Source: a virus
UHGV virus genome: UHGV-0170778
Length of the DNA stretch: 64,000 bases
Strand: one strand, 5' to 3'
How positions within the stretch are numbered: the stretch's first letter is position 1; each line of letters starts with the position of its first letter. Below, one piece after another: positions 2,032 through 57,395 of the stretch. Under the pieces are notes generated by a model. It saw only the letters and a list, made by a program, of their open reading frames with translations, was not told the origin of the DNA and did not search any database. The position numbers and the translations under genes were made by a program.

Positions 2032-4026
2032 ATGGCTAAAATAGTCATAAATGAAATTTCACAAAACTATACATACAACATTGGTTCATCTTCTTTTGCA
2101 ACTGTTGCATTTCCGATTACAGCTGCTTGGGGACCTGCTTTTGTTGACGAAGAGACTTCTTTCTTTCAGCCTGCATCAAAGGCAGCTGGAAAAACAATAG
2201 ACGATGCATTAGAAAATACTGCATTTATTAGATTCCCTGCAACTCAAGCAGGTCTAGAGGCATTTGTTTCTACTTATCGTGGACCAGAAACAAATTATAG
2301 AATGACAAAAGATTATTCTTACTACATTGCAATGACTCTGCTTACTGCAGGATATGATGTTCTGGTGTGTCGTGTTTGCCCAGGAACGAAAGCAGAGGTT
2401 TGGTATGATTCAGATAAGCATTCATCTTCTGCAGTAGCTCCCACAAATGGATTGCATATATCTGCAAAATATCCTGGTAGTTTTGGTAATCAACTTTCTG
2501 TAGTTGTTAAAGAAGTGTCTAAAGGTACTGTATCTGTAACTACTGGAGAAGAAGCTCATCAGAAAACAGAAACTAAAGCTGCTCCTGAGGCCTATTGGAA
2601 CTTGATTGTATATGCAGAAGATTCATCAGGTACAAGAACAGCAGTTGAGAATCTCTCATTTGTATGTGACGAAACTGATTCAACAGATACATTGCTTTAT
2701 GTAGATGAAGTTTCTTCTTCTTTTATAGATATAACTAAAATAGGCAATATAAATGATGAGTTAATGCAGAGTAAAATGAGCACCATTGAACTGTCTGGCG
2801 GAGATGATTATGCAAAGGTCGATGGTTCAGCTACTTCTTCAACTTTATTAGCTGAAGCTGTAAAATACGCAACATATAGATACACTGCTGCATTAGGTAC
2901 AGAGATCGGAGCAAATAGTAAATATGTTAAAGCTCTTACAGCTGTAGATGGGTCTAAGACAGATAAATCTAAAGCAAAAGCAATTCGACACAATGAGTGG
3001 GTATATTGTGCAGCTTACACAGTATATGATTTGTTGACAGACAGATTGTCCTACAATCCAAATAGAATTGTTTCTCCTGGTTGGGATGATCAGTGGTTTG
3101 AGTTTTTCGGAAGTAAAGTAGATGAATCTACTGGAATTACAGAAATTTCTCCTTTACATAAGAAATTGATGTATGTAGGATATTACAGCCGTTGCGGAAC
3201 TGCATTGATCGACATCCCTCGTTCAGAGCCTAGAAAATTTGTATATAATGATAAAGTAGGCTCTGAAGGATATGCGCAGATGCTTTCAGCGTCCGGTACA
3301 GCTACAAATGTAGGCATTGAAGGATCTACAGTAGTTGTAGCAGGACTTACAGACAATCTGTATGATACACATTCTGCTTTGTTTGCTCCTTGGGGACAAT
3401 ATAAATACGTAGGAACAGGAAAGCAAAACGCTGCTGCTCCGTCATTCTTAGCATTGATGATCCAGAGAGCAATGATTCTAAATCAGTCACTTCAGTATGA
3501 ATGGGCTTTACCTACAAACAGACAGCATAATCTAAAAATCGGCAAACTTGATTACATTGTTAACAACAAACTTCTAAATGAGTGGCAGTCATTAGAAGGT
3601 GTAGGCGTAAATGTAATCACAGATATTCCAGGTTCAGGTACAACATTATGGGGCAACTCTACTCTATATGATGTTCCACCTGCAACATATCAAGCACTTG
3701 CAAACCTTTCAACTCGTTATCTAGTAAACGCAGTAGAAGATGTAGCTTTCAGATGTGGTATGCAGATTACATTCCGCTACAATAACCAAGAAGCTTACAG
3801 TTCATTCTATGCAGGATGTACTCCAATTCTAGACACTATGAAGAATGTAGGTGCAATTGAAGATTATTACATTGAGATGTCTGCTGACATTGATAAATTA
3901 TCTTCAGTCAATGCAAATACAGTTGTAGGTAAAATCTATCTAGTCGTAAACGGCGTAATCAATGATATCTACATCGACCTTATCGCATTGCCACAAGGTA
4001 CAGATCTGAGTCAGTATAGAAGCTAA
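2032..4026 (+). CDS. putative tail sheath protein
   Basis: 664 aa. C-terminal EGVGVNVITDIPGSGTTLWGNSTLY resembles the GVNxIR...G.VWGARTL signature of contractile-tail sheath C-terminal domains. RBS AGGAGGAAAAG. Confidence 0.5.
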   Translation: MAKIVINEISQNYTYNIGSSSFATVAFPITAAWGPAFVDEETSFFQPASKAAGKTIDDALENTAFIRFPATQAGLEAFVSTYRGPETNYRMTKDYSYYIAMTLLTAGYDVLVCRVCPGTKAEVWYDSDKHSSSAVAPTNGLHISAKYPGSFGNQLSVVVKEVSKGTVSVTTGEEAHQKTETKAAPEAYWNLIVYAEDSSGTRTAVENLSFVCDETDSTDTLLYVDEVSSSFIDITKIGNINDELMQSKMSTIELSGGDDYAKVDGSATSSTLLAEAVKYATYRYTAALGTEIGANSKYVKALTAVDGSKTDKSKAKAIRHNEWVYCAAYTVYDLLTDRLSYNPNRIVSPGWDDQWFEFFGSKVDESTGITEISPLHKKLMYVGYYSRCGTALIDIPRSEPRKFVYNDKVGSEGYAQMLSASGTATNVGIEGSTVVVAGLTDNLYDTHSALFAPWGQYKYVGTGKQNAAAPSFLALMIQRAMILNQSLQYEWALPTNRQHNLKIGKLDYIVNNKLLNEWQSLEGVGVNVITDIPGSGTTLWGNSTLYDVPPATYQALANLSTRYLVNAVEDVAFRCGMQITFRYNNQEAYSSFYAGCTPILDTMKNVGAIEDYYIEMSADIDKLSSVNANTVVGKIYLVVNGVINDIYIDLIALPQGTDLSQYRS

Positions 4027-4035
4027 TTCGTTATA

Positions 4036-5036: not shown

Positions 5037-5423
5037 ATGAAAATATATATTAAATGTAATAGTTCTGACTTTAAGATTTCTTATAGAGGAAATTACAATC
5101 TGGATAACAAGCTAGTAAGTAAAGATAAATTCATAAATGATATGAAGAATTTCTTTGCACGTGTTTTACCTGATTTTGGAATCTATTCTGTTATAATCAG
5201 CAATGCAAAATTGGATATGAATATAACAGACACAGATGTAAAAGGTTTTAATTTTGAAGAAGATGACAGATTAGGTATTTCGTTCAATATTTCTGCAAAC
5301 GGTCAAAAATTGAACGTTTCTACAGAATATGTATATGTTGATGATGAATTTGTAAATGCAGATGATATATATGACAGAACAGATGAAGCTCAAGAGATAG
5401 GAGAATTATTGTCTGGTGAATAA
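5037..5423 (+). CDS. hypothetical protein
   Basis: 128-aa ORF, GGAGGAATAAAA RBS. Confidence 0.45.
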   Translation: MKIYIKCNSSDFKISYRGNYNLDNKLVSKDKFINDMKNFFARVLPDFGIYSVIISNAKLDMNITDTDVKGFNFEEDDRLGISFNISANGQKLNVSTEYVYVDDEFVNADDIYDRTDEAQEIGELLSGE

Positions 5424-5473
5424 ATAAATCAAAAAGAGCTATTGTAGCTAAATAAAATAAAGGATTACGCAAA

Positions 5474-5656
5474 ATGAAAATATATACATCTAGATGGGTA
5501 GATAAACCTGGGGAGATGTTAGATTTAGGTAATAAATTAGCTGATTTATTTGTTACTACTAATATACATGAATATCTCAGTGAAGATGAAATGGATCAGA
5601 TAGCAGAAGTTTCAGATATGCTAAAAGATGTTGCTAAGTTGATGAAAGAAAAATAA
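5474..5656 (+). CDS. hypothetical small protein
   Basis: 60-aa ORF, AAGGAT RBS. Confidence 0.4.
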   Translation: MKIYTSRWVDKPGEMLDLGNKLADLFVTTNIHEYLSEDEMDQIAEVSDMLKDVAKLMKEK

Positions 5657-5683
5657 TTTAGTGTATATAGCCGAATAGCCCAA

Positions 5684-5716
5684 GCAGCAAGACTTTGATC
5701 TTGCTGCTGTTTCTAT
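5684..5716 (+). terminator. rho-independent terminator (cassette copy 1)
   Basis: 9-bp stem gcagcaaga/tcttgctgc, 6-nt loop, followed by tgtttctatatt. Confidence 0.6.
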
Positions 5717-5746
5717 ATTAAAACATTAAGAAACTATTAAGATCTA

Positions 5747-5775
5747 TTGAAATTAGGTCAATATTTCGTTATAAT
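5747..5775 (+). promoter_or_regulatory. sigma-A-type promoter (cassette copy 1)
   Basis: TTGAAA - 17 bp - TATAAT. Part of a conserved approximately 60-bp element aaaacattaagaaactattaaga...tcaatatttcgttataatat. Confidence 0.6.
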
Positions 5776-5825
5776 ATGTATGTGTAAAGTAGATAAATTG
5801 ATACACACAGGGAGAAAAATACAAA

Positions 5826-6692
5826 ATGGATACAAATGTTGACTATGAGAATCTGAAAGAAATTACAGTAAACACACAAGAAGAATTAAACAGAATACCG
5901 CTTGATTTCAAAGGAAGAATTTATGTAGAGTTTGGTACTTATGATAATCCAGCTATTGTTGAGAATGAGTATAGTTTAAGGGTTGTTGCTAGAAAAGGTT
6001 CATGTATAGAAGCTAGAAAAGACGCATATGTTGAGGCTGAAGATAAATCAATGGTTATTGCTCGAGAGGAGTCCAATGCAGTTGCGAATGATAATTCAAG
6101 CATTGAGGCTCGAGATAATTCAAAAGTTTATGCATATAATACTTCAAGAATTGTTGCTTGGGGTCGTTCAAGAGTTTTCTCTGAGGATGATGCAATCATT
6201 GAAGCTCGAGAGCATTCGACAGTTAAAGCTTGGAAGAGGTCAATCATCGCTGCATATGATAGGTCAACCGTCATTGCTTACAATAAGTCTAGTGTTGTTG
6301 CTTGGGGTAAGTCAAAAGTTCATTCTGAGAATAGATGCAGCGTTGAGACTCATGATCAGTCAAAGGTGACTGCGTTAGGGTATTCAAAAGTTGAGGCATA
6401 TGATCAGTCAACTGTTCAAGCTTATCAACAGTCAGACGTTGTGTCCTATGATAATTCAGTTGTTGTTGCTAAAGAGTCAGCAATCGTTAATTCTTATGAT
6501 AATTCAATCGTTGTTGCTAATGGGCATTCAAGCGTAGAGGCTGAAGGAAAATCATTAGTTACTGCTCATAACAATTCTAGCGTTGTTGCTCGTGACAATT
6601 CAGACGTTACGGCTATGGATGATTCAACTGTTGAGTCCTATGATAATTCAACTGTTGAGCTTCGCGATAATGCACAGCTGGTCAATGCGTAA
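5826..6692 (+). CDS. octapeptide-repeat protein (about 28 tandem 8-aa repeats, consensus S-x-V-x-A-x-[DN]-x)
   Basis: 288 aa. From about aa 55 the protein is an uninterrupted array such as SRIVAWGR SRVFSEDD AIIEAREH STVKAWKR SIIAAYDR STVIAYNK ... First gene after cassette copy 1. Confidence 0.6.
   Translation: MDTNVDYENLKEITVNTQEELNRIPLDFKGRIYVEFGTYDNPAIVENEYSLRVVARKGSCIEARKDAYVEAEDKSMVIAREESNAVANDNSSIEARDNSKVYAYNTSRIVAWGRSRVFSEDDAIIEAREHSTVKAWKRSIIAAYDRSTVIAYNKSSVVAWGKSKVHSENRCSVETHDQSKVTALGYSKVEAYDQSTVQAYQQSDVVSYDNSVVVAKESAIVNSYDNSIVVANGHSSVEAEGKSLVTAHNNSSVVARDNSDVTAMDDSTVESYDNSTVELRDNAQLVNA
5990..6692 (+). repeat. degenerate 24-bp tandem repeat array (coding)
   Basis: DNA-level periodicity underlying the octapeptide repeats. 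Also generates a spurious periodic ORF in another frame (6028..6369). Confidence 0.6.
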
Positions 6693-6740
6693 AGTTTGTA
6701 GGTAAATATATAAGCAGTCAGGACATTATATTTAACAAAA

Positions 6741-6773
6741 GCAGCAAGAAATTGATCTTGCTGCTATTTTTAT
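6741..6773 (+). terminator. rho-independent terminator (cassette copy 2)
   Basis: Same 9-bp stem gcagcaaga/tcttgctgc, loop aattga, then tatttttat. Confidence 0.6.
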
Positions 6774-6804
6774 GTCCAAAATATTAAAAAACTATTAAGA
6801 ACAC

Positions 6805-6833
6805 TTGAATTTATATCAATATTTCGTTATAAT
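6805..6833 (+). promoter_or_regulatory. sigma-A-type promoter (cassette copy 2)
   Basis: TTGAAT - 17 bp - TATAAT. Flanks are near-identical to copy 3. Confidence 0.6.
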
Positions 6834-6867
6834 ATATGTGTAATAAAAGATAGCGGAGGTTAATATT

Positions 6868-7062
6868 ATGTCTACTCTAAAAGAATTATATAAAACAGAG
6901 AAGGGTTTCGACAAAGGTGCAACTCTTTCAGTTTATGAATACTCAGACGGAAGTATACATTATACTTTTCGTGATAGACTTGGAAAACCTTCTAATGTAG
7001 ATGGTCACAATGAAGCAGAATTTCTGATTGAAACTTTTAATATGCAGAAACAGAATGCATGA
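6868..7062 (+). CDS. hypothetical small early protein
   Basis: 64 aa, GGAGGT RBS, first gene after cassette copy 2. Confidence 0.45.
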   Translation: MSTLKELYKTEKGFDKGATLSVYEYSDGSIHYTFRDRLGKPSNVDGHNEAEFLIETFNMQKQNA

Positions 7063-7295
7063 AGATTGATTTTTGGAAAGGAGAAAGCACAATGCCAAGA
7101 GTATTGACAGTGGACGGTAGTGTAAAAATCGGAGCATACAGTTTTCCTGATAGGAAAAAGCCCTGTATATGTGTCGAGAAAGGAAACGCTTGTGTTGTGT
7201 ACGGCTCTTTCATTGATATTGACCGTGCAAAAGAATTTATGGATGAACTCGCAGCTCTTGTGGGTGCGAGGAATGATAAGGAGGACGAAGAATGA
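7059..7295 (+). CDS. hypothetical small protein
   Basis: 78 aa, ATGA overlap, GGAGAAAG RBS. Confidence 0.45.
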   Translation: MKIDFWKGESTMPRVLTVDGSVKIGAYSFPDRKKPCICVEKGNACVVYGSFIDIDRAKEFMDELAALVGARNDKEDEE

Positions 7296-7462
7296 CAAAC
7301 TACGAGCGAATAAAAAATATGAGCATTGATGAAATGGCGAACGCCATAAAAAAAGGCCATTTCGGAGACCCGTGTGAGCATTGTTCTTTAAGAAACGAAC
7401 CATGTGCATTCTTATGTGTTAAGGGTATTTTAATGTGGCTTAATAGTGGGTTGAAGGAATGA
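7292..7462 (+). CDS. small Cys-containing protein, tandem paralogue of 7459..7650
   Basis: 56-aa ORF below the track cutoff: MTNYERIKNMSIDEMANAIKKGHFGDPCEHCSLRNEPCAFLC... It shares MTN[YF]ERIKNMS[IV]DEMA with the next gene. ATGA overlaps on both sides. Confidence 0.45.
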   Translation: MTNYERIKNMSIDEMANAIKKGHFGDPCEHCSLRNEPCAFLCVKGILMWLNSGLKE

Positions 7463-8018: not shown

Positions 8019-8197
8019 CCGCTCTAATGAACAGGTATAACGACGATAATGAAAATTGCATTACATGCAAAGATTGTCTAAATTACGGGCCTTGTGCAGC
8101 CCCATTTAAGTGTGACGATAATACTAGCGTGTATTTCTGTGATGAATTTGTAAACAAAAATTGCAGTGATATTGAGTTAAAGGAGAAAACAAAATGA
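7967..8197 (+). CDS. hypothetical Cys-rich protein; its frame is open from 7931 and begins with the second zinc-ribbon half (CPEC)
   Basis: Track ORF starts at a TTG. The same frame upstream reads FFYKFCPECGQALDWGKRP... with a TGA immediately before the T7 run. Contains CITCKDCLNYGPC. Likely expressed by a -1 shift from 7647..8018, or the two ORFs are split by a homopolymer error. Confidence 0.4.
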   Translation: MDWGKRPINYEIYFQNLTALMNRYNDDNENCITCKDCLNYGPCAAPFKCDDNTSVYFCDEFVNKNCSDIELKEKTK

Positions 8198-8415
8198 GTA
8201 ATCTCACGCTTAACAACGGCTGGATTAGTGTAAATGACAGACTACCGGACACAAGTAGATATGTGATTGCGTGTTCCGATTTACAAGACGTATTCGAATG
8301 TTGGTATCGCACCATAGACAAATGTTGGGTAAGACACGGCCATATAGTTGTTGAAAACATTACGCATTGGCGAGAACTACCTGACCCGCCGATAATGGAG
8401 GAGAGCAAAGAATGA
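8194..8415 (+). CDS. DUF551-like small phage protein
   Basis: NGWISVNDRLPDTSRYVIAC matches the W-I-S-V-x-D-x-LP signature of DUF551. Paralogue at 8774..9046. Confidence 0.5.
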   Translation: MSNLTLNNGWISVNDRLPDTSRYVIACSDLQDVFECWYRTIDKCWVRHGHIVVENITHWRELPDPPIMEESKE

Positions 8416-8522
8416 CTTGTAAAGATTGTCCACATTTTGATGTGTGCAAAATGTATGGTGCATTCCATACAAAGACACGCTGGAAATCATCGGCAACATC
8501 CACGATAATCCCGAATTGTTGA
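8412..8522 (+). CDS. very small CxxC protein (MTCKDCPHFDVCKMY...)
   Basis: 36-aa ORF with ATGA overlap. It shares its N-terminal motif with the 10226..10627 product. Confidence 0.3.
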   Translation: MTCKDCPHFDVCKMYGAFHTKTRWKSSATSTIIPNC

Positions 8523-11326: not shown

Positions 11327-11438
11327 CACATTAGATGCGTTGTTGTACAGAGTATGTCTACTATATTGCAATGCAAGACTAAAGTATTCATATATGTACA
11401 TAGAAATGACCAGGTAAATTACCTGTTCTGTATTTTTG

Positions 11439-13091
11439 TTATTTTACATATGCATAAACAGCTTGACCACAATCATAAACAGGTAACCATCCGTGATCAA
11501 TCATCAATTCTTCATTTGAGGTTCCTTTTCCGTAATCTGTGTTGAAAAGTTGATCGTATCCTCGTTGACGTAAGAGATTTGCAGTTATTTTATTATTCTC
11601 CAACGACCATATTTCTTGAGGAGGTGTATTCTTAACAAAATGCATACCTAATTTGCTATAAACAGATCCGTCAAATTTAGATAAATCACAATAGGAAATT
11701 ATATTGTTCAGATGATAATGAGAGACGGCGTATTTGAAGAGTTTTGAAGCCCCGCCAGTAATTTTATATCTACTGTTTGAGCAAAGTCGAAGAAGTTCAT
11801 ATTGATAGTTTCTATTATATCTAGAATTACCAAAAGTCATCACTTCAACAAGTTCTCCTTTATACATCAATCCTACTCGAATATTCTGTCCTTTACATGT
11901 ATTCTGGATATGATACTTACATAAGAATTCGTCGCATTCTTTCTTACCTATCTCTACAATTTTGCAGTTACGGGCATATATAACTTCTTTCTTTGTCAAT
12001 AGCTGGATGACTTTGTCCCAGTTATCCCAATCAAAGATATGAATACATCTGAATCCGTTTTCTTTAGCAATATTAGTCTTCTCTAAATGGTAACCTTTAT
12101 CTACAGTAACATTCCAATGGTTTCCAACAATGTTGTGAGTATAAGTAGGATCAATTTCTATTAGAATGTTAGTGTCAAGTATGTGTAAGTCGTAAAATTT
12201 TCCACTTAGATAAAATTCTAACTCTCCGTTTTCATTTGCTGCTTTTACAGCATCTAAAAATTTCAAATTTGTTTTAGATATCCTGTTTTTTCTGCACTGA
12301 GCGTCATTTGTCAAGCAGCCATAAGGAACTCCGTATTTCTTCATACATGTTTCTTGTATTTTCATTTGAATTGTTTCAGATTTTGAAGGGTTATCTACTC
12401 CTAAGTGTTCGATCCAAGTCTGCTTTGCTTTTTCGTCTATTTCGTCAGGCCAAAAAGACCCATAGTTCGCTATTCTATGTTCCATAGCTATTTTATTTAT
12501 TGATTCCACCTGCATTGGATTTTCTTTTCCATATCGTTCCATCATTGTTTGTTTTGCTTTTTCTGTAAATTGATCTATTTTAGATGGATTAGCTTTGCCA
12601 TACTTTGCCTCCATAGTTGCTTTGTATTTATCATATAACTGTTTACTCTGTAAAGTAGTAGGAGCACCGTATCGTTCAGTCATAGTTTTCATTGATTTTT
12701 TCTTTATTTCTGGATCGCTCAATGCCCAGTCAACACCAAATTTCTTCTGGTTAGATGCTTTTGCTTTTTCATAAAATTGATCTGATTGCAAAGCAAATTC
12801 AACACCATACTTATCTTTCATAGATTTTCTGTGATGAGCTTGAACTTCTTTGTTTTGCATAGGATGATCTACACCATATTTTTCTCTACATCTCATCTTT
12901 CGTAATTGAGCTTTACATTCTTTGGAACACGGAGGAGGCTGTTGTCTTGAATTCCATATCATTTGTTTACCACAAACAGGGCAAGGAACATAATGATCGT
13001 CATTACATATTTTAGTAGAACTTCTTTCTGGCATAAATATTTTGCCACATATAACACATTTCTTCGGACTCTTTGGAACACCTTTAGGCAT
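11439..13091 (-). CDS. homing-endonuclease-like protein, paralogue A
   Basis: The only substantial minus-strand gene. Architecture: zinc ribbon (CVICGKIF ... CPVCGK), about 9 tandem approximately 33-aa [KR]YG[VA]xxPxQ repeats, PD-(D/E)xK core (ILIEIDPTYTHN ... YHLEKT ... GFRCIHIFDWDNWD), and a conserved C-terminal domain. Start moved to MPKG. Confidence 0.65.
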   Translation of the reverse strand: MPKGVPKSPKKCVICGKIFMPERSSTKICNDDHYVPCPVCGKQMIWNSRQQPPPCSKECKAQLRKMRCREKYGVDHPMQNKEVQAHHRKSMKDKYGVEFALQSDQFYEKAKASNQKKFGVDWALSDPEIKKKSMKTMTERYGAPTTLQSKQLYDKYKATMEAKYGKANPSKIDQFTEKAKQTMMERYGKENPMQVESINKIAMEHRIANYGSFWPDEIDEKAKQTWIEHLGVDNPSKSETIQMKIQETCMKKYGVPYGCLTNDAQCRKNRISKTNLKFLDAVKAANENGELEFYLSGKFYDLHILDTNILIEIDPTYTHNIVGNHWNVTVDKGYHLEKTNIAKENGFRCIHIFDWDNWDKVIQLLTKKEVIYARNCKIVEIGKKECDEFLCKYHIQNTCKGQNIRVGLMYKGELVEVMTFGNSRYNRNYQYELLRLCSNSRYKITGGASKLFKYAVSHYHLNNIISYCDLSKFDGSVYSKLGMHFVKNTPPQEIWSLENNKITANLLRQRGYDQLFNTDYGKGTSNEELMIDHGWLPVYDCGQAVYAYVK

Positions 13092-13139
13092 ATAATAAAT
13101 CTCACTTTCAATATTATTATTAAATATAAGGTACATATA

Positions 13140-13168
13140 ATATAACGAAATTCAAAAACGAATTGAAA
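13140..13168 (-). promoter_or_regulatory. diverged minus-strand copy of the cassette promoter, driving paralogue A
   Basis: The minus strand reads TTTCAA - 17 bp - TTATAT within tttcgttatattatatgt, one mismatch from the cassette tttcgttataatatatgt. Confidence 0.4.
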
Positions 13169-13219
13169 CCTTATATACTCATAGAACAACAAAGTTAAAA
13201 ATATAAAGGAGATTTATAT

Positions 13220-13765
13220 ATGTTTACACCATTAGCAATGGGAACAAATCACATGTTAGGCGTAGATTCTTATGTCCCCCTAACAACAAACAACTTTGAA
13301 ATTCGAGTGTATAACATGGATGGAAGTGTACCAACAGAATTCTCAGAATTGTTAACATTGAGCACTGATGAAATTGGAGCTATCCAGGAAGAAGAAGATC
13401 AGATCGTTGTACATTATGGAAATGGTCTAATCAAATTCCCGAGTAAAGTATCTTTCAACGATGTAGACTGGACATTGAATTGCTATTGCTCTCCTAATGT
13501 TTATGAAAATCTTCGTGCTTGGAGAAAAATGGTTTATGATCCTGATACAGAGAGAATGGGTCTTCCTACGGAGTATATGAAGCAAGTCTATTTCATTAGA
13601 TATGATGGCCAAGGAAATTGCAGAGATGTAATTAAGTGTCCAGGCTGCTGGCCAGGAGCTCTCAATAATGGTTCCATGAACCAGACTGGTGGTGAACTAG
13701 TTAAAGTAAGTTTGCCGCTAGTTATTTCCAGAGTCATCTACTTGAAACCTGAAGATTTTCAGTAA
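13220..13765 (+). CDS. hypothetical protein
   Basis: 181-aa ORF between the two endonuclease paralogues, GGAGAT RBS. Confidence 0.5.
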   Translation: MFTPLAMGTNHMLGVDSYVPLTTNNFEIRVYNMDGSVPTEFSELLTLSTDEIGAIQEEEDQIVVHYGNGLIKFPSKVSFNDVDWTLNCYCSPNVYENLRAWRKMVYDPDTERMGLPTEYMKQVYFIRYDGQGNCRDVIKCPGCWPGALNNGSMNQTGGELVKVSLPLVISRVIYLKPEDFQ

Positions 13766-13848
13766 TTGAAGTCAAAATTTACAGTCAAGGCAAGCTAAGG
13801 AACATAACCTTTTATCTATTCGTTATATAGATAGGAGGTTATGTTTTT

Positions 13849-15408
13849 ATGATCAAAAAATGTAAGATATGCGGAAAAGAGTTTGAAGCATATGGTACTT
13901 CTGAATATTGCCCAGGCCCTCACTATAAAAAATGTGCTGTTTGTGGTAAAGAGTTTGAATGGGATAGATTGCATCCTAAGAAATGTTGTTCGAGGAAATG
14001 TGCAGCAGCTCTTCGACTTTCTACTATATCATCAGAAACAAGAATATGCGAACTTTGTGGGAAAGAATTTCATCCTAATAATAGTACGCAAAAATACTGT
14101 AAAGATGATCATTACAGACCTTGTCCTGTGTGTGGGAAACCAATTAAAATAACTGAAGACACAAGCATTACTTCTTGTTGTTCTGTTGAATGTAGTAATG
14201 AGCTTAGAAAGAGGACATGTATTGATAAATATGGAGTTCCTATTGTATCTCAGAATGACGAAATACGACAGAAATTGAGTCAAGCTTCAATAGAATCAGA
14301 AAATAAGAGAAAAGAAACATGTATCAAACGATATGGAGTTGAATTCGCTTCTAAATATTCTGAGGTTAGAAGAAAAATATCGAATACAGTTAAAAGCAAA
14401 GAATGTCAAAGTAGAATTAGAAATACGACACAACACAAGTATGGAGTTCCGTTCGTAATGCAATGCGAAGAAGGATTATCTAGATATAGAAAAACAATAG
14501 AATCTAAATATGGAGTTCCATATTTTTGTATGACAGATAAATGCAAAGACTCGCAAGGGAAAGTAATTTCGACTCTAAATAAAAGTTTTGGAAACTTATT
14601 GAGTCAAAATAACATACCATATACATTTGAATACAAGATAGAGAATAGATCGTATGATATTTGCGTCCCTGGATCAAAAACACTGATCGAAATTGATCCT
14701 ACATATACTCATAATGTTATTGGAAATTGTTGGGGACCTGGCTTAGAGATCAATTATCATATAGAGAAGACAAAATTAGCAAATGAATATGGATTCAGGT
14801 GTATTCATATTTGGGATTGGGATGATTGGGATAAGATAATAAATATCATCAGGCCAAAATCCGTCATATATGCTAGAAAATGTAAAATAAGTGTGATTGA
14901 TCGAAAAACAGCAGAATCTTTTGAAATTGATAATCATTTACAAGGCGCTGTAAAAGGACAATCTATTTGCTTAGGTCTATTTTATTGCAATGATCTAGTA
15001 CAGGTCATGACTTTCGGTAAACCTAGGTACAATAAAAACTACGATTGGGAACTGCTTAGACTCTGTTCCATTTCTGATTATGCAGTTGTAGGCGGAGCAG
15101 AGAAGCTATGGAAATATTTCATAAGTAGACATGTATCAGATTCAGTTATTTCTTATTGTGATTTGTCTAAATTCAAAGGAGATGTTTACACGAGATTAGG
15201 TATGTCCTTAGACTTTGTAAACGAACCCAATAAAATATGGTCTAAGAAATCTGAAATGATAACCAATAACTTACTCCTTCAACGAGGGTACGATCAATTA
15301 TTCAATACAAATTATGGAAAGGGGACCTCAAACGAAGAATTGATGCTGGAACACGGATGGTTGCCGGTTTATGATTGTGGTCAAGCAAGATATACATGGA
15401 GTAATTGA
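13849..15408 (+). CDS. homing-endonuclease-like protein, paralogue B
   Basis: Two tandem approximately 60-aa Cys zinc-ribbon modules (CKICGKEF..CAVCGKEF..CCSRKC, CELCGKEF..CPVCGK..CCSVEC), 4 KYGV repeats, LIEIDPTYTHN...YHIEKTKLANEYGFRCIHIWDWDDWD, and C-terminal IYARKCKI...NHLQG...VVGGAEKL. Confidence 0.65.
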   Translation: MIKKCKICGKEFEAYGTSEYCPGPHYKKCAVCGKEFEWDRLHPKKCCSRKCAAALRLSTISSETRICELCGKEFHPNNSTQKYCKDDHYRPCPVCGKPIKITEDTSITSCCSVECSNELRKRTCIDKYGVPIVSQNDEIRQKLSQASIESENKRKETCIKRYGVEFASKYSEVRRKISNTVKSKECQSRIRNTTQHKYGVPFVMQCEEGLSRYRKTIESKYGVPYFCMTDKCKDSQGKVISTLNKSFGNLLSQNNIPYTFEYKIENRSYDICVPGSKTLIEIDPTYTHNVIGNCWGPGLEINYHIEKTKLANEYGFRCIHIWDWDDWDKIINIIRPKSVIYARKCKISVIDRKTAESFEIDNHLQGAVKGQSICLGLFYCNDLVQVMTFGKPRYNKNYDWELLRLCSISDYAVVGGAEKLWKYFISRHVSDSVISYCDLSKFKGDVYTRLGMSLDFVNEPNKIWSKKSEMITNNLLLQRGYDQLFNTNYGKGTSNEELMLEHGWLPVYDCGQARYTWSN

Positions 15409-15560
15409 TTGTAAATTGCATACTAGTATGATATTTTGAATATGTATGCATGAAATTTAATTCAATGATATGTATAATATATAATACAGTAATTAAATAA
15501 AAATAGTCATCTAAATATAACCTTATTTACGTGTAAATAAATATTATTAAGGAGTTTATC

Positions 15561-15929: not shown

Positions 15930-15942
15930 TTAAAATCAAAAC

Positions 15943-15975
15943 GCAGCAAGATCAAATTCTTGCTGCTATTTTTAT
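15943..15975 (+). terminator. rho-independent terminator (cassette copy 3)
   Basis: Stem gcagcaaga/tcttgctgc, then tatttttat. Confidence 0.6.
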
Positions 15976-16006
15976 GTCCAAAATATTAAAAAACTATTAA
16001 GAACAC

Positions 16007-16035
16007 TTGAATTTATATCAATATTTCGTTATAAT
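16007..16035 (+). promoter_or_regulatory. sigma-A-type promoter (cassette copy 3)
   Basis: TTGAAT - 17 bp - TATAAT. About 90 bp near-identical to copy 2. Confidence 0.6.
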
Positions 16036-16115
16036 ATATGTGTAATAAAAGATAAATAGATGTAATGAGGTGTCACAAAGAACTACAAACCTACCAATAC
16101 AGAAAGGTGTTTATT

Positions 16116-16268: not shown

Positions 16269-17099
16269 TTGAAAGGAGTATTACACATGACTAAAACAGA
16301 ATTGAGAGAGGTACTCGATTTGCATCAGAAATGGCTGAATCTTGAAGACGATGGAGTCAGAGCTAATCTGCATGATTGTGATCTAAGTGGTGCTGACTTG
16401 CAAGGTGTAGATTTAAGTAGGGCTAACCTGCTGAGAGCAAATCTACACGGAGCTGATTTACGAGGAGCATATTTAGGTGGGTGTAACTTGTATGAAGCTG
16501 ATCTCAGTTGCGCAGATATGCAAGGAGCTATCTTTCACAATGCTAACTTTACAGGAGCTAACCTTCGAGAATCAAATCTAAGCGGTTCTGATATGTTTTT
16601 AGCTAACTTGAAGAGAGCAAATTTGCAAAAAGCTAATTTAGTAGAAGCAGACCTATTTCAAGCTAACTTGAAGAGAGCAAATTTGCGTGAATCTGACTTG
16701 CGTGAAGCTAACCTAGTAGGGGCTGACTTACGGGGAGCAGATTTGCGTAGTGCAAGAAATGTACCTTTCATTCCTCTCATTTGTCCGGAAAAGGGTGAAT
16801 TTACTTCTTTCATTAGATGTGGTGACTATATTGTAGAACTTTTGATTCCAGCTGACGCTAAACGGTTTTCTGCAACCACAAGAAGATGCTGGGCAAATTA
16901 TGCTAAAGTTCTGTCAATCACAACATTGTCTGGAGACCCTGTCGAAACGATTAGTGTAACAGATACTGAAGTTTCTCCAAACATTGTATACACAGTCGGA
17001 GAATTTGTATATCCGAATTACTTTAGTGATGACCGGTGGGACGAATATTACGGTGGTATCTATTTTTTCATCAATCGACAAGAAGCTGTAAACCATTGA
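16269..17099 (+). CDS. pentapeptide-repeat protein
   Basis: About 27 consecutive A[DN]LxG-type pentapeptides (ANLHD CDLSG ADLQG VDLSR ANLLR ANLHG ADLRG ...), then an approximately 110-aa non-repeat C-terminus. GAAAGGAG RBS. Confidence 0.75.
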   Translation: MKGVLHMTKTELREVLDLHQKWLNLEDDGVRANLHDCDLSGADLQGVDLSRANLLRANLHGADLRGAYLGGCNLYEADLSCADMQGAIFHNANFTGANLRESNLSGSDMFLANLKRANLQKANLVEADLFQANLKRANLRESDLREANLVGADLRGADLRSARNVPFIPLICPEKGEFTSFIRCGDYIVELLIPADAKRFSATTRRCWANYAKVLSITTLSGDPVETISVTDTEVSPNIVYTVGEFVYPNYFSDDRWDEYYGGIYFFINRQEAVNH

Positions 17100-18044: not shown

Positions 18045-18830
18045 ATGCCAGTATCAGAAAAAATTCAGCTTCTAGGAAAAGGAATGTACAAAGACATTCC
18101 AGATGAGCTGACACTAAACGCAATCCCAACATCTGCTGAACTTGATTATGTAGGTGGAGATGATTTTGACAAAACAATGATTGAAAAAATCTTCCCACAA
18201 GCGATTACAGAAGACATTAACTTCAGCGAACTACTTCAAATAGATTATCAGTGGATCTGTAGATGTTTAAGAATTCTAAATTATGGTCCATATCATACAA
18301 CAAATAACATCATGTGTTCAGCTTGTGGAGAAGTATCCTCCGGAGAATATCAAGTAGACCTAAGAACAGTAAATTGTGTTCCAATCCCTGCTGGAACAAA
18401 GAATGAATTCCAGTTAACAAAAGAAAGCTTCATCGACTTCGACGGAGAAATCACATTCAAGATGTTAACAATGAAAGAGCTCTTTGCATCACAGCAAGAT
18501 AAGACATTTGCAAACAAAGATGGATCCATCAACAAACAGCTTTCCAGAATCTGTTATATGATTAAGTCATTCAAAGGAAAAACAGGTATGCTTCCACTTG
18601 AAGTAAAAACACTTATCAACAAGAAGCTATCACCTGCTGATTTCGTAATCTTGAGAAACAAGATGGATGAGATGACTGACTTCGGTCTAAGAGCAGGAGG
18701 AACATGTACTTGTCCAAAATGCGGAAATACAACAGCAGCATATCTTGCTCTAGTAGATGAAAGATTTTTTCGCCCGACCGTGGGAGATCTCTACGCATGG
18801 AGAGACGATCCAGATCGCAGGAAAGACTAA
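18045..18830 (+). CDS. putative tail assembly chaperone
   Basis: 261 aa with Cys pairs. It overlaps the next ORF in another frame, just upstream of the tape measure gene. AGGAGAAAAACAAA RBS. Confidence 0.4.
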   Translation: MPVSEKIQLLGKGMYKDIPDELTLNAIPTSAELDYVGGDDFDKTMIEKIFPQAITEDINFSELLQIDYQWICRCLRILNYGPYHTTNNIMCSACGEVSSGEYQVDLRTVNCVPIPAGTKNEFQLTKESFIDFDGEITFKMLTMKELFASQQDKTFANKDGSINKQLSRICYMIKSFKGKTGMLPLEVKTLINKKLSPADFVILRNKMDEMTDFGLRAGGTCTCPKCGNTTAAYLALVDERFFRPTVGDLYAWRDDPDRRKD

Positions 18831-41598: not shown

Positions 41599-41666
41599 TG
41601 TAAATTTCGTTAAATAACCTTTATTAAATCGTTATAATAGTTGTAATGGTAGTAAAGGTGGTTTAT

Positions 41667-43280
41667 ATGACTAAAATATGTGCAGAATGCGGGAAAGAAT
41701 TTGAAGGAAAAGGAAAACAAAAGTATTGTAATAGAAAACACTATAGAAAATGTGTTATATGCGGGCAGAATTTTGAAATTTCGCGAGATCAACTTCAAAA
41801 TGGAGACCAAAGGAGAACCTGTTCTAAAAAATGCACTATAGAGCTTAGAAAACAAACTAATACTAAGAAGTATGGAGGCGTAGCTCCGGCGTGTTCAGAA
41901 TCTGTTAGAGAAAAGATGCAATCTACTACCTTAGAAAGATATGGAGTGAAGCATGCAGCGCAAGCTGATATTTTCAAAGAGAAGTCAAAGCAAACAGCTC
42001 TATCTAAGTATGGTGTTGAATATTATGCAAAAACAGACGAAAGCAAACAAAAACTAACGGAACGATGGAGAGACGAAGAATATAAACGCAAAGTTGTTTC
42101 TAAAATAGCAGCTACAAATCTTGAGAGATATGGGTTTAGAAGTTCTATGCAGTCATTAGATGTTCAATTACGAAATGTAACATCTAAGATGACAGATTCA
42201 TCTAAATATCAAACCTTTCTGAAATTCAAAAAGAATCCAAGAGAAGTTATAGAAAGTTTAGAATTAGACCATAAACCTACTTTATATGAATTAACTTCAT
42301 ATATAGGAGTAAACGAAAGCACTGTCGGTGTATATATACATTTGAATAATTGCGAAGATTTGATTTCCCATAGATCTTCTATTATGGAAACTGATGTTGT
42401 TGCTTTTTTGAAAGAATTAGATCCGGAAATTGTCATATCTAGATGTGATAGAACTATCATTTCTCCATATGAAATAGACATCTACTTACCTGAATACAAA
42501 ATAGGGATAGAATGTAACCCAACAGCTACACATAATGTAGATATAAATGTGTTCGACAATAGTAAACCTACAATGTCCATAAGTTACCATCAAATGAAAA
42601 CTAACATGTGTGAAGATAAGGGTGTACGATTGATTCACATATTTGGATATGAATGGAAATATAAACAAAAAATATTAAAATCTATAATCAGCAATGCTTT
42701 ATGTAAGAACAAAAATAGAATATATGCAAGAAAATGCGAGATACGAAAAGTAGACAGTTATGAATGTTCTAAATTTCTAAATGAAAATCATCGACAAGGG
42801 AAAGTAGGTTCGTCTGTAAGATTAGGGCTGTATTTTGAAAATAAACTAGTTTCTATAATGACATTTGGAAAATTAAGAAAAACTATAGGCTCAAATGGAG
42901 ACGGGTATGAACTGTTAAGATTCTGTTCCACTCTAAATACATGTGTTGTTGGTGGTGCAAGTAAACTGTTTAATTATTTCATAAAAACATACAGTCCAAA
43001 TTATATTAGATCTTTTTCAGATAGAGCACATACAACAGGAAATATTTACAAATTATTAGGTTTTGTAGAAGTTAATAGAAGCACTCCTGGATATTGTTGG
43101 GTGAATATCAATACAGAAAAAGCATATCATAGAATGAATGCACAGAAACATAATATAAAGAAATTTCTAAATGATGATAGCATTGATCTATCTAAGTCAG
43201 AACGAGAAATAATGACAGAACATAGATTCGCTAGAGTATTTGATTCAGGTACAATTACATGGGAATGGCATTCTATATAG
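41667..43280 (+). CDS. homing-endonuclease-like protein, paralogue C
   Basis: CAECGKEF..CVICGQNF..CSKKC zinc ribbon, 4-5 KYGV-type repeats (ERYGVKHAAQ, SKYGVEYYAK, ERYGFRSSMQ), IGIECNPTATHN...YHQMKT...GVRLIHIFGYEW core, and C-terminal IYARKCEIRKVD...NHRQG...VVGGASKLF. Start moved to MTKICAECG, which has an AAAGGTGG RBS. Confidence 0.6.
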   Translation: MTKICAECGKEFEGKGKQKYCNRKHYRKCVICGQNFEISRDQLQNGDQRRTCSKKCTIELRKQTNTKKYGGVAPACSESVREKMQSTTLERYGVKHAAQADIFKEKSKQTALSKYGVEYYAKTDESKQKLTERWRDEEYKRKVVSKIAATNLERYGFRSSMQSLDVQLRNVTSKMTDSSKYQTFLKFKKNPREVIESLELDHKPTLYELTSYIGVNESTVGVYIHLNNCEDLISHRSSIMETDVVAFLKELDPEIVISRCDRTIISPYEIDIYLPEYKIGIECNPTATHNVDINVFDNSKPTMSISYHQMKTNMCEDKGVRLIHIFGYEWKYKQKILKSIISNALCKNKNRIYARKCEIRKVDSYECSKFLNENHRQGKVGSSVRLGLYFENKLVSIMTFGKLRKTIGSNGDGYELLRFCSTLNTCVVGGASKLFNYFIKTYSPNYIRSFSDRAHTTGNIYKLLGFVEVNRSTPGYCWVNINTEKAYHRMNAQKHNIKKFLNDDSIDLSKSEREIMTEHRFARVFDSGTITWEWHSI

Positions 43281-43426
43281 GGAATAGTAATCGTTCAAAA
43301 TATGGTGCAGATTGGTTCACACATACCAATAAATATGTAAAAGTAGAAAAAGAAACTTGTATATACATTCAGAATTCTAATTTTGTTATTTCTATACCCA
43401 AAATATTAAGAAACTATTAAGAAGAC

Positions 43427-43455
43427 TTGAAATTATATCAATATTTCGTTATAAT
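43427..43455 (+). promoter_or_regulatory. sigma-A-type promoter (cassette copy 4, no obvious upstream hairpin)
   Basis: TTGAAA - 17 bp - TATAAT within ccaaaatattaagaaactattaagaagacttgaaattatatcaatatttcgttataatat. Confidence 0.55.
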
Positions 43456-43512
43456 ATAGGTAGTCAGGTAGATAAAAAGTAACAAACTACATGAATTATA
43501 GGAGATTTACAA

Positions 43513-45537: not shown

Positions 45538-45660
45538 TATTTGCTTGCAAACACCAACCTTATATAGAAACAAGTAAAAGCCTGAGAACCTTTTACCTAT
45601 TGAGTTATTGATTTGAAAATGGTGTACACACACCAAAAATAAATACGGAGGTAAAACTTA

Positions 45661-57237: not shown

Positions 57238-57280
57238 AGTTTGTATTTTTGCATGTATTAAATAAAATACATAAATCAGA

Positions 57281-57309
57281 TAGCTCGCTCATATGCGGGC
57301 TATTTTTAT
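57281..57309 (+). terminator. rho-independent terminator (cassette copy 5)
   Basis: tagctcgc-tcatat-gcgggcta (8 bp with one G.U), then tttttat. Confidence 0.5.
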
Positions 57310-57340
57310 ACTAAAAATATTAAGAAACTATTAAGAAGAC

Positions 57341-57369
57341 TTGAAATTATATCAATATTTCGTTATAAT
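57341..57369 (+). promoter_or_regulatory. sigma-A-type promoter (cassette copy 5)
   Basis: TTGAAA - 17 bp - TATAAT within ctaaaaatattaagaaactattaagaagacttgaaattatatcaatatttcgttataatatatg. Confidence 0.55.
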
Positions 57370-57395
57370 ATATGTAAATAAAGGAGGAATAATAA

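Follow-up and report, generated by a model that had tools for sequence, protein, structure and literature searches.

An inverted Hef-like gene upstream of a phage tail-tube gene, probably a free-standing homing-endonuclease gene of an old, site-specific lineage

Within a stretch of 64,000 nucleotides (nt) of the virus genome UHGV-0170778 (referred to as the window), a gene designated paralogue A is located upstream of the tail-tube gene and encoded on the minus strand. Based on sequence comparison, structure prediction and motif analysis, A is probably a Hef-like homing-endonuclease gene of the free-standing type, which lies upstream of the tube gene in reverse orientation and belongs to an old lineage that is specific for this site. 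A second Hef-like gene, paralogue B, occupies the other flank of the tube gene. The three genes are as follows.

11439–13091, minus strand: coding sequence (CDS) of paralogue A, stop codon included, encoding a 550-amino-acid (aa) Hef-like endonuclease, as delimited by orthologue N-termini and gene calls on contigs.
13220–13765, plus strand: tail-tube gene (181 aa; phrog_4542 'tail tube', E = 1.9e-10), which follows the sheath gene in relatives.
13773–15525, plus strand: paralogue B cassette with the CDS at 13849–15408, missing as a block from contigs L001 and L005.

The window features a G+C content of 33.7%, and nearly all of its coding sequence is on the plus strand; a greedy map of open reading frames (ORFs) contained 70 plus-strand and four minus-strand ORFs. 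Two of the latter, at 7005–7409 and 8124–8468, coincide with plus-strand genes called on L002, an identical metagenome contig, and one of these called genes matches Pfam DUF551. Another minus-strand ORF encodes 85 aa only. Hence, A is the sole substantial minus-strand gene, as stated in the initial annotation of this DNA, which also correctly placed A and B head-to-head (5' end to 5' end) across the 181-aa gene. The mechanical ORF of A spans 11439–13136 (565 aa). Translation almost certainly starts at the second methionine codon at 13091 and not at the first ATG at 13136, as judged from the Shine-Dalgarno-like sequence ahead of it, from the way in which orthologous proteins begin (MPTGKPT.../MPKGVPK...) and from gene callers, which picked this codon on L001, L002, L005 and L010. 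Moreover, GGAG-type sites were found in A orthologues at the equivalent position. The start at 13091 is also needed for the promoter assignment discussed below, because the first ATG falls within the proposed -10 region. Since A points against all neighbouring transcription, it would be expressed from the 128-bp divergent intergenic region that it shares with the tube gene. Both ends of the gene are accompanied by short signals.

13101–13109, minus strand: GAAAGTGAG, resembling a Shine-Dalgarno sequence and located 9 nt ahead of the start codon at 13091, read from the sequence.
11411–11425, no strand assigned: weak bidirectional hairpin between A and the convergent 153-aa gene.

Membership of A in its family is evident from sequence as well as from fold. 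In the PHROGs database, A was assigned to phrog_3339 'homing endonuclease' (E = 1.6e-87) and B to a 'homing endonuclease' family as well (E = 9.6e-71). By means of tblastn, full-length relatives at 25–30% identity were identified in 423 phage records, among them Hef of Campylobacter phages (100% coverage, 27% identity, E = 2e-44), F-LimX of Dickeya phage LIMEstone1 (98% coverage), Klebsiella phage RaK2 and the Lak megaphages; the matches to Hef, RaK2 and F-LimX span 92–100% of the length. In total, the family comprises at least 5,300 relatives at E <= 1e-10. On the basis of these comparisons, A is a member of the Hef-like family annotated as homing endonucleases, and the term endonuclease initially applied to it is well founded in the phrog_3339 assignment and the full-length similarity to Hef and F-LimX. 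NCBIfam provided nothing useful for A, and sequence searches of the PDB, whether started from A itself or from a profile of its family, retrieved zinc-finger proteins only. A full-length AlphaFold model (35 sequences, predicted local distance difference test score, pLDDT, of 85) consists of zinc ribbons, nine regular helices and a small and a larger alpha/beta domain, which correspond to the following regions.

12906–13067, minus strand (approximately aa 9–62): zinc-ribbon region with weak matches to YacG-type zinc ribbons.
12297–12923, minus strand (approximately aa 57–265): DUF7487 helical repeats (Pfam, E = 7e-34), presumed to form a DNA-binding array.
11994–12239, minus strand (approximately aa 285–366, LIEIDPTYTHN ... 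RCIHIFDWD): Vsr-like or EDxHD-type PD-(D/E)xK nuclease domain, modelled with a pLDDT of 85.
11442–11990, minus strand (approximately aa 368–550): Mom-like GNAT domain, assigned by Foldseek, hhalign and residue conservation.

In the zinc-ribbon alignment, residues C12, C15, C29, H33, C37, C40, C55 and C59 are invariant. The subsequent repeats appear in the model as a run of regular helices from residue 57 to 253, and no Pfam family other than DUF7487 was detected in A. For the nuclease domain model, the top Foldseek match in the PDB was the catalytic domain of I-Bth0305I (3r3p; probability 1.0, template-modelling score 0.59–0.66, E = 0.02), followed by matches including 3hrl, AbaSI, Vsr (1vsr, 1cw0), Hjc and DUF559-type nucleases. 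Within this domain, E312, H319, H335, K338 and H351 do not vary in the family, and E292 and D301 hardly do. N-terminal to the nuclease, A carries zinc ribbons and DUF7487 repeats and no NUMOD or helix-turn-helix (HTH) modules.

The C-terminal domain allows for a different interpretation of the gene. The top Foldseek match of the full model is Mom of phage Mu (8bv8, E = 2.4e-7, ~200 columns), ranking ahead of other GNATs. In a weak hhalign alignment to Mom (E = 0.13), Mom residues R111, S124, D149 and Y159 correspond to R435, S449, D469 and Y478 of A, all of which are invariant or at least 90% conserved in the family; in the same weak alignment, Mom R151 is paired with L470 of A, and a conserved K472 is located two residues off. 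Furthermore, a Pfam Mom match is present in 7 of 35 members of the family. Fusions of a restriction endonuclease (REase) with Mom in jumbo phages, which show the same order of nuclease and Mom-type GNAT and for which the four counterparts in A are likewise conserved, were interpreted as restriction-modification-like systems and not as homing elements (Iyer et al. 2021, PMC7824862), whereas Mu Mom itself is a stand-alone enzyme whose R151 has no aligned counterpart in A. Accordingly, A could be a one-polypeptide, restriction-modification-like weapon, the very role predicted for the jumbo-phage fusions, in which the Mom-like domain would modify adenines of the phage's DNA and the nuclease would attack unmodified DNA of the host or of competitors, the position beside the tube gene being incidental to accessory-gene flux. 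Purifying selection on a fixed gene would suit such a phage-beneficial function. In L057 (3214–5295) and L058 (3192–5273), the downstream flank of the tube gene encodes a 693-aa protein in which DUF7487 is fused to an N6/N4 DNA methyltransferase; these repeats were thus also joined to a different DNA-modifying module. Even so, the distribution of A described in the following makes the weapon interpretation unlikely, and a PADLOC search returned no match.

A megablast search of the locus against 50,697 phage records remained without a match. Since GenBank phages thus provided no counterpart, contigs from metagenomes and IMG/VR (labelled L001 onwards) were used to evaluate presence and absence. 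Searching for identical copies of the tube protein and of the 153-aa protein encoded upstream yielded 15 close contexts sharing ~95–100% nt identity, and A was present in all of them, inverted each time. Judged from these contigs, A is old and fixed in the lineage and not a recent insertion. A is either full or deleted and B exists as two sequence types; each of the four possible pairings was encountered, which indicates recombination across the tube gene. Nucleotide identity among the close relatives peaks at 98.4–100% over 13053–13552, covering the 5' end of A, the intergenic region and the 5' part of the tube gene. The 18-nt promoter-like sequence of A addressed below and the whole intergenic region between A and the tube gene are kept in all close relatives that are free of an insertion sequence (IS). 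The exceptions, L004 and L007, harbour a TnpB gene between the promoter region of A and the tube gene; the insertion point corresponds to window position ~13175–13186, where 12 bp (ATACTCATAGAA) align to both flanks.

L004 and L007, 8658–9911; L003, 14698–15951; L063, 837–2087: IS605-type TnpB (OrfB).

To extend the comparison, 40 IMG/VR loci with tube proteins of 64–85% identity were mapped by tblastn. Upstream of the tube gene, 25 of these loci carry a Hef-like gene on the minus strand (18 full, 7 partial), a single locus has one on the plus strand and the remaining 14 have none. On the downstream flank, most Hef-like genes are plus-stranded, at times two in tandem, and in one case the gene is on the minus strand. 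Tube homologues at 88–99% identity were present on short contigs only, and the next lineages (82–85%) again possess the inverted upstream gene. In a second species-level lineage, the tube gene is located after nucleotide-metabolism genes and the inverted upstream gene is kept, while its downstream slot is occupied by alternative alleles of opposite orientation. Thus, the initial view of A as an independently inserted mobile gene holds as far as the flanks are polymorphic, an exact empty site exists for B and A has an origin separate from B, but it does not hold for a recent insertion; likewise, the variation in presence and orientation looked for among relatives was found in the 40 distant loci and not in the close contexts, where all 15 are the same.

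These observations bear on the weapon interpretation. The occurrence of A on the same flank of the same gene and in the same orientation, even where the neighbourhood of the tube gene differs, argues against an incidental position. Several paralogues per genome, exact presence/absence alleles and the co-occurrence with ORF-less introns in the adjacent gene argue in the same direction. Site-specific distribution, paralogues, presence/absence alleles and introns are hallmarks of homing elements; the homing and the weapon interpretation are not exclusive of one another.

The gene beside A was identified as the tail-tube gene from its matches to the tube family and from its position right after the sheath gene in L019, L024 and L026. 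The 181-aa protein is similar to annotated tube proteins of Listeria and Bacillus phages. In the three loci mentioned, the order is sheath gene, 20 bp, tube gene, ~45 bp and a homologue of the structural gene at 18045–18830 of the window, and no endonuclease gene is present around the tube gene. Within the window, 9.2 kb of small genes with promoter cassettes lie between the sheath gene (2032–4026) and the tube gene, and the next structural gene follows after another 4.3 kb. The conserved tube gene is the presumed target or anchor of the endonuclease genes on its flanks.

Introns in related tube genes provide a further indication. Within codons 8–30, the tube gene is split in 8 of the 40 related loci, and its first 30 codons contain at least six different intron insertion points in relatives. 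Two group I introns were detected in the tube gene of L044 (Rfam, 90.8 and 71.8 bits) and an ORF-less group II intron in that of L046; L039, L031 and L045 show sub-threshold group I matches, and L030, L040 and L041 show split reading frames. Three of the intron-bearing loci have two introns per tube gene. The intron and split positions are listed below.

L044, 5305–5974; L046, 5435–6000; L039, approximately 5100–5990: tube-gene introns or splits, ORF-less.
L031, L045 and L030, upstream of 6001; L040, upstream of 5244; L041, upstream of 5240: further tube-gene introns or splits.

All eight split-tube loci also have an inverted Hef-like gene or a fragment of it upstream. Considering the intron layout as known from collaborative or trans homing, the 5' end of the tube gene is a likely target, and the high-identity island among the close relatives gives, together with the introns, hints in the same direction.

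The initial annotation had also considered a duplicated-and-inverted origin of A, which was not confirmed. A and B share 39% identity over 548 columns (E = 6e-125), with good conservation of the C-terminal half and poor conservation of the N-terminal half. A shares 51–56% identity with the upstream genes found in other phages, and B shares 56–57% with the downstream genes of L018 and L020. In a neighbour-joining tree, A falls into a single clade with all other inverted genes from the upstream flank, B clusters with the downstream genes of L018 and L020, and the third paralogue of the window, C, is placed elsewhere. A and B were thus assigned to separate lineages, each with its own positional orthologues, by which formation of A through local duplication and inversion of B was ruled out. 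The mirror orientation around one gene and the raised nt identity of two stretches (87% over 108 bp, 76% over ~150 bp) would fit a duplication of B giving rise to A, or the reverse, but a protein identity of 39% only, closer orthologues of both genes elsewhere and the tree topology render such an origin exceedingly improbable. The 108-bp stretch is an inverted repeat (11461–11568 versus 15279–15386) near the 3' ends of A and B. Its identity greatly exceeds the similarity of the two genes as a whole, and may reflect strong constraint on the C-terminal motif or gene conversion between them.

B differs from A in being polymorphic among the close contexts. Its block of ~1,753 bp, which starts 7 nt after the stop codon of the tube gene, is cleanly absent from the two B-less contigs. 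The 3' end of B (15409–15525) contains a 10/12 match to the sigma-70 consensus (15450–15478) and ACCTTATTT at 15520; these promoter-like signals feed the downstream 122-aa gene, are missing from the B-less allele and parallel those T4 endonuclease genes that give promoters to their neighbours. The dN/dS ratio (nonsynonymous to synonymous substitutions) is 0.10–0.17 for B. Close relatives show two forms of the N-terminal part of B (14053–14552, comprising the zinc finger and the repeats), at 99–100% versus 84–91% nt identity, and the remainder is uniform.

Two kinds of promoter-like signals precede A in the divergent intergenic region, the first resembling the composite cassettes found on the plus strand.

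13133–13150, minus strand: TTTCGTTATATTATATGT, matching the -10 region of the cassettes on the plus strand at 17/18 positions, with the hexamer TATATT at 13144–13139.
13162–13168, minus strand: weak -35-like element, either TTCAAT (13167–13162) with a 17-nt spacer or TTTCAA (13168–13163) with an 18-nt spacer, each matching TTGACA at 3/6 positions.
5682–5792, 6737–6852, 15939–16054, 43359–43474 and 57273–57388, plus strand: five composite cassettes of up to 116 nt.

The five cassettes border blocks of small variable genes. In them, a G+C-rich hairpin with its T-run and an A/T-rich part precede a promoter that has TTGAAT or TTGAAA as the -35 hexamer and TATAAT at a spacing of 17 nt. With a terminator hairpin and a sigma-70-type promoter combined within ~116 nt, the cassettes resemble the PeSL promoter-terminator elements of T4-type phages (PMC2839356, PMC4122927). 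As described initially, TTTCGTTATATTATATGT ahead of A differs by one mismatch from the 18-mer of the five cassettes; the spacing of 17 bp given at that time for TTTCAA has to be corrected, since this hexamer is 18 nt away from TATATT and the one at 17 nt is TTCAAT. Six matches to the cassette 18-mer with up to three mismatches were counted in the window, compared to 0.35 expected, and none of 100 shuffles reached six. The identity of the flanks of the 18-mer (twelve extra matching bases) is far beyond chance. Unlike in a PeSL-type cassette, only the 18-nt -10 region, i.e., the -10 box and its six-base flanks, is shared upstream of A, and the remainder is unrelated: the terminator hairpin, the A/T-rich upstream part and the TTGAAT/TTGAAA -35 element are all missing. 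A full cassette copy (~75–116 nt, including TTTCGTTATAAT) upstream of A was ruled out since the match is restricted to 18 nt.

Orthologues of A possess sigma-70-type promoters 29–58 nt before the start codon, at the same position as in A. The consensus TTGACA-17-TATAAT (12/12) precedes the orthologues in L011, L029, L049, L059 and L060, TTGACT-17-TATAAT (11/12) those in L021 and L048, TTGACG-17-TATAAT (11/12) that in L035, and 10/12 matches those in L015 and L020. For comparison, among 130-nt segments taken at random from the window, 69% attain a score of at least 8/12, 1.35% at least 10/12 and 0.15% at least 11/12. Moreover, TATAAT-AT(AT)GTAC or TCGTTATA is common to the upstream region of A in the window and to several orthologues. 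Because near-consensus promoters and shared features are found at the same place in the orthologues, the promoter appears to belong to the endonuclease unit. It was more likely inherited with this unit than captured from a resident cassette, and the promoter of A in the window appears to be a weakened form of the orthologue promoter. Thus, the claim that the inverted gene has promoter-like signals of its own is substantiated, and of the two options offered for their origin, carried or captured, the former is favoured and capture from the resident cassette is not. In the shared intergenic region, the best plus-strand sigma-70 match for the tube gene scored 9/12 (TTCAAA-17-TATACT, 13151–13179), which is background level.

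The second signal is a short motif located between the 18-mer and the start of A, which recurs in the window.

13124–13132, minus strand: ACCTTATAT, its first base 41 nt upstream of the start codon of A.
13168–13176, plus strand: ACCTTATAT ahead of the tail-tube gene.
1775, 13168, 13807, 15520, 17505, 45557, 48776 and 58340, plus strand, and 13132, minus strand: recurrent ACCTT(A/T)TAT motif.

The copies at 13132 and 13168 represent an inverted pair, and in most relatives ACCTTATAT is found ~40–50 nt before the ATG of the tube gene. Motifs of this type precede the genes starting at 1804, 13220, 13849, 15561, 17535, 48812 and 58381 at a distance of about 29–52 nt when counted from the first base of the 9-mer to the start codon (31–54 nt as otherwise counted), and the copy at 45557 is located ~104 nt ahead of a start codon. 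ACCTTATAT possibly represents a candidate second promoter class, middle or late. A might hence be transcribed from the element at 13132–13124 and be co-regulated with the tube gene, the 18-mer being vestigial. The placement of the element upstream of seven plus-strand genes at a similar distance as upstream of A, its status as the sole high-scoring minus-strand match in a weight-matrix scan of the 64 kb and the weakness of the sigma-70-like match argue for this possibility, as does the observation that endonuclease-specific promoters of T4 are middle or late, never early (PMC2988022). On the other hand, orthologues of A keep sigma-70-type promoters and none has a minus-strand ACCTTATAT upstream, high-scoring copies are also located within coding regions (39589 and 53742), and the promoter role of ACCTTATAT is itself deduced. 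Transcription from this element is accordingly considered a tentative option, albeit one to be taken seriously.

Weak promoter signals could also mean that A is a silent, decaying relic preceded by a non-functional promoter-like match. The weak -35 element and a promoter score attained by most random segments of the window are in agreement with decay. So are a split of A into 73-aa and 394-aa ORFs in L003, accompanied by a deletion in the repeat array (L003 8458–9872), broken upstream ORFs in L062 and the fragments upstream of the tube gene in 7 of the 40 loci. However, A is under purifying selection (dN/dS = 0.09–0.22 across six alleles), and no invariant position has been lost from its zinc-ribbon, nuclease or Mom-like domain. 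Furthermore, L004, L006, L007 and L008 share an in-frame deletion of ~79 aa confined to the DUF7487 array (window 12205–12513), and the promoter-like 18-mer is kept along with the intergenic region as described above. Hence, a relic is very improbable.

The A lineage occupies the same site and orientation in many related phages, with the B lineage on the downstream flank. For A as a homing-endonuclease gene, we infer a transcription start, cleavage, a target and homing in the following steps. A would be expressed from the weak sigma-70/sigmaA-type promoter (predicted start at ~13131), from the adjacent ACCTTATAT-type element or from both. In a mixed infection, phages without A or with a sensitive allele would have their tube-gene region cleaved by the nuclease, and repair from the endonuclease-bearing genome would copy A along with the adjacent 5' end of the tube gene.

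Several points weigh against this interpretation. No A-empty allele was found among the 15 close contexts, and recent mobility of A is thus without support. Strong purifying selection on a fixed gene is unlike a purely selfish element. The association of introns with the inverted upstream gene (one-sided p = C(25,8)/C(40,8) = 0.014) was calculated ignoring the relatedness of the loci, and the first 35 tube codons show no discriminating difference between endonuclease-bearing and endonuclease-free phages. With respect to the catalytic residues, the searches yielded no residue-level alignment of A to 3r3p by which the EDxHD motif could be assigned, and at D314 some family members have D and others N. 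The link of A to the experimentally studied Hef of phage U5 runs through chains of annotation. Finally, the promoter in the window (TTCAAT-17-TATATT or TTTCAA-18) matches the sigma-70 consensus at 8/12 positions and stayed below the threshold of a promoter scan of the window, which did not report it.

The arrangement is of a known kind, with a precedent in phage LIMEstone1, in which the Hef-like gene F-LimVIII is located on the opposite strand beside the tail-tube gene (PMC3296691). As for other Hef-type genes (U5 Hef; Hef of CP220/CPt10; LIMEstone1 F-LimIII, VII, VIII and X), A is intergenic and free-standing beside a conserved gene, and the sequence similarity to Campylobacter-phage Hef and F-LimX extends over the full length, yet at an identity of only 25–28%. 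In comparison to the phages bearing these genes, the phage harbouring A is uncultivated and known from metagenomes, with an AT-rich, myovirus-like genome of ~120 kb, and several lineages crowd both flanks of one gene. Hef-type enzymes were placed in the EDxHD family with I-Bth0305I as the prototype (Taylor et al., PMC3239194), and it is this enzyme (3R3P), with its Vsr fold, that is the best PDB match of the central domain model. In contrast to A, I-Bth0305I is intron-encoded, contains NUMOD/HTH modules and is devoid of a Mom-like domain, whereas A is free-standing, possesses zinc ribbons, DUF7487 repeats and a C-terminal GNAT, and has no match in the PDB at the sequence level. The seg and mob genes of T4 are likewise intergenic next to conserved genes and have promoters of their own or give promoters to the downstream gene. 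Moreover, the introns of the tube gene resemble the situation of mobE and the nrdB intron, where an ORF-less intron resides in the neighbouring target gene (PMC2988022). Unlike A, the T4 genes encode GIY-YIG and HNH nucleases and use middle or late endonuclease-specific promoters; orthologues of A carry host-type consensus promoters, and the inverted orientation is the rule for the genes upstream of the tube gene.

Further features were recorded in the window and the related loci. The third Hef-like paralogue is located far downstream of the tube gene.

41646–43280, plus strand: paralogue C (544 aa), ~30% identical to A.

Among A, B and C, the latter provides the best Pfam Mom match (E = 5.6e-6), and in L022, L030 and L032 relatives of C take the place on the downstream flank of the tube gene. 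C is preceded by ATCGTTATAAT, a near copy of TTCGTTATA, and by ACCTTTATT. The core TTCGTTATA occurs in eight plus-strand copies and one minus-strand copy, each intergenic or at a gene end; one copy is located 30 nt upstream of B. Directly after the stop codon of the sheath gene (window 4027–4035), TTCGTTATA is present in the window and in L003. An extra Hef-like gene (670 aa; L003 487–2499) right after the sheath gene of L003 replaces three small genes of the window. GIY-YIG endonuclease genes were observed in the variable region preceding the tube gene in L001 (302–1126), L004 (444–1268), L008 (3021–3818) and L009 (2485–3309). A ribonucleotide reductase intein shows presence/absence variation between L059/L064 and L060/L061 (1–765; 1143 versus 763 aa). 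At 16269–17099 of the window and in related loci, pentapeptide-repeat proteins with DUF5758 (one or two per genome) as well as Tad8-like and DarA_C-like proteins are encoded, and the accessory regions around the tube gene suggest an anti-defence gene island.

An inverted free-standing homing-endonuclease gene with its own promoter is, taken alone, routine in phage genomics. The tube gene, by contrast, is an unusually busy landing site, being cut off from the sheath gene by kilobases and flanked on both sides by Hef-like lineages, and its context represents a dense natural experiment in homing. The same architecture of nuclease and Mom domain is labelled either 'homing endonuclease' or 'REase-Mom restriction-modification' in the literature, which makes the family worthwhile for biochemical studies. 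As a speculative idea with rather poor prospects of being right, Hef-like proteins such as A could be self-marking homing endonucleases, in which the Mom-like domain would mark adenines at or close to the enzyme's recognition site in the resident genome and the Vsr-type nuclease would cut unmarked rival genomes only. If this were true, the element would both home and exclude rival alleles of the tube gene, the homing-endonuclease and REase-Mom interpretations would merge, and purifying selection on a fixed gene would be explained.

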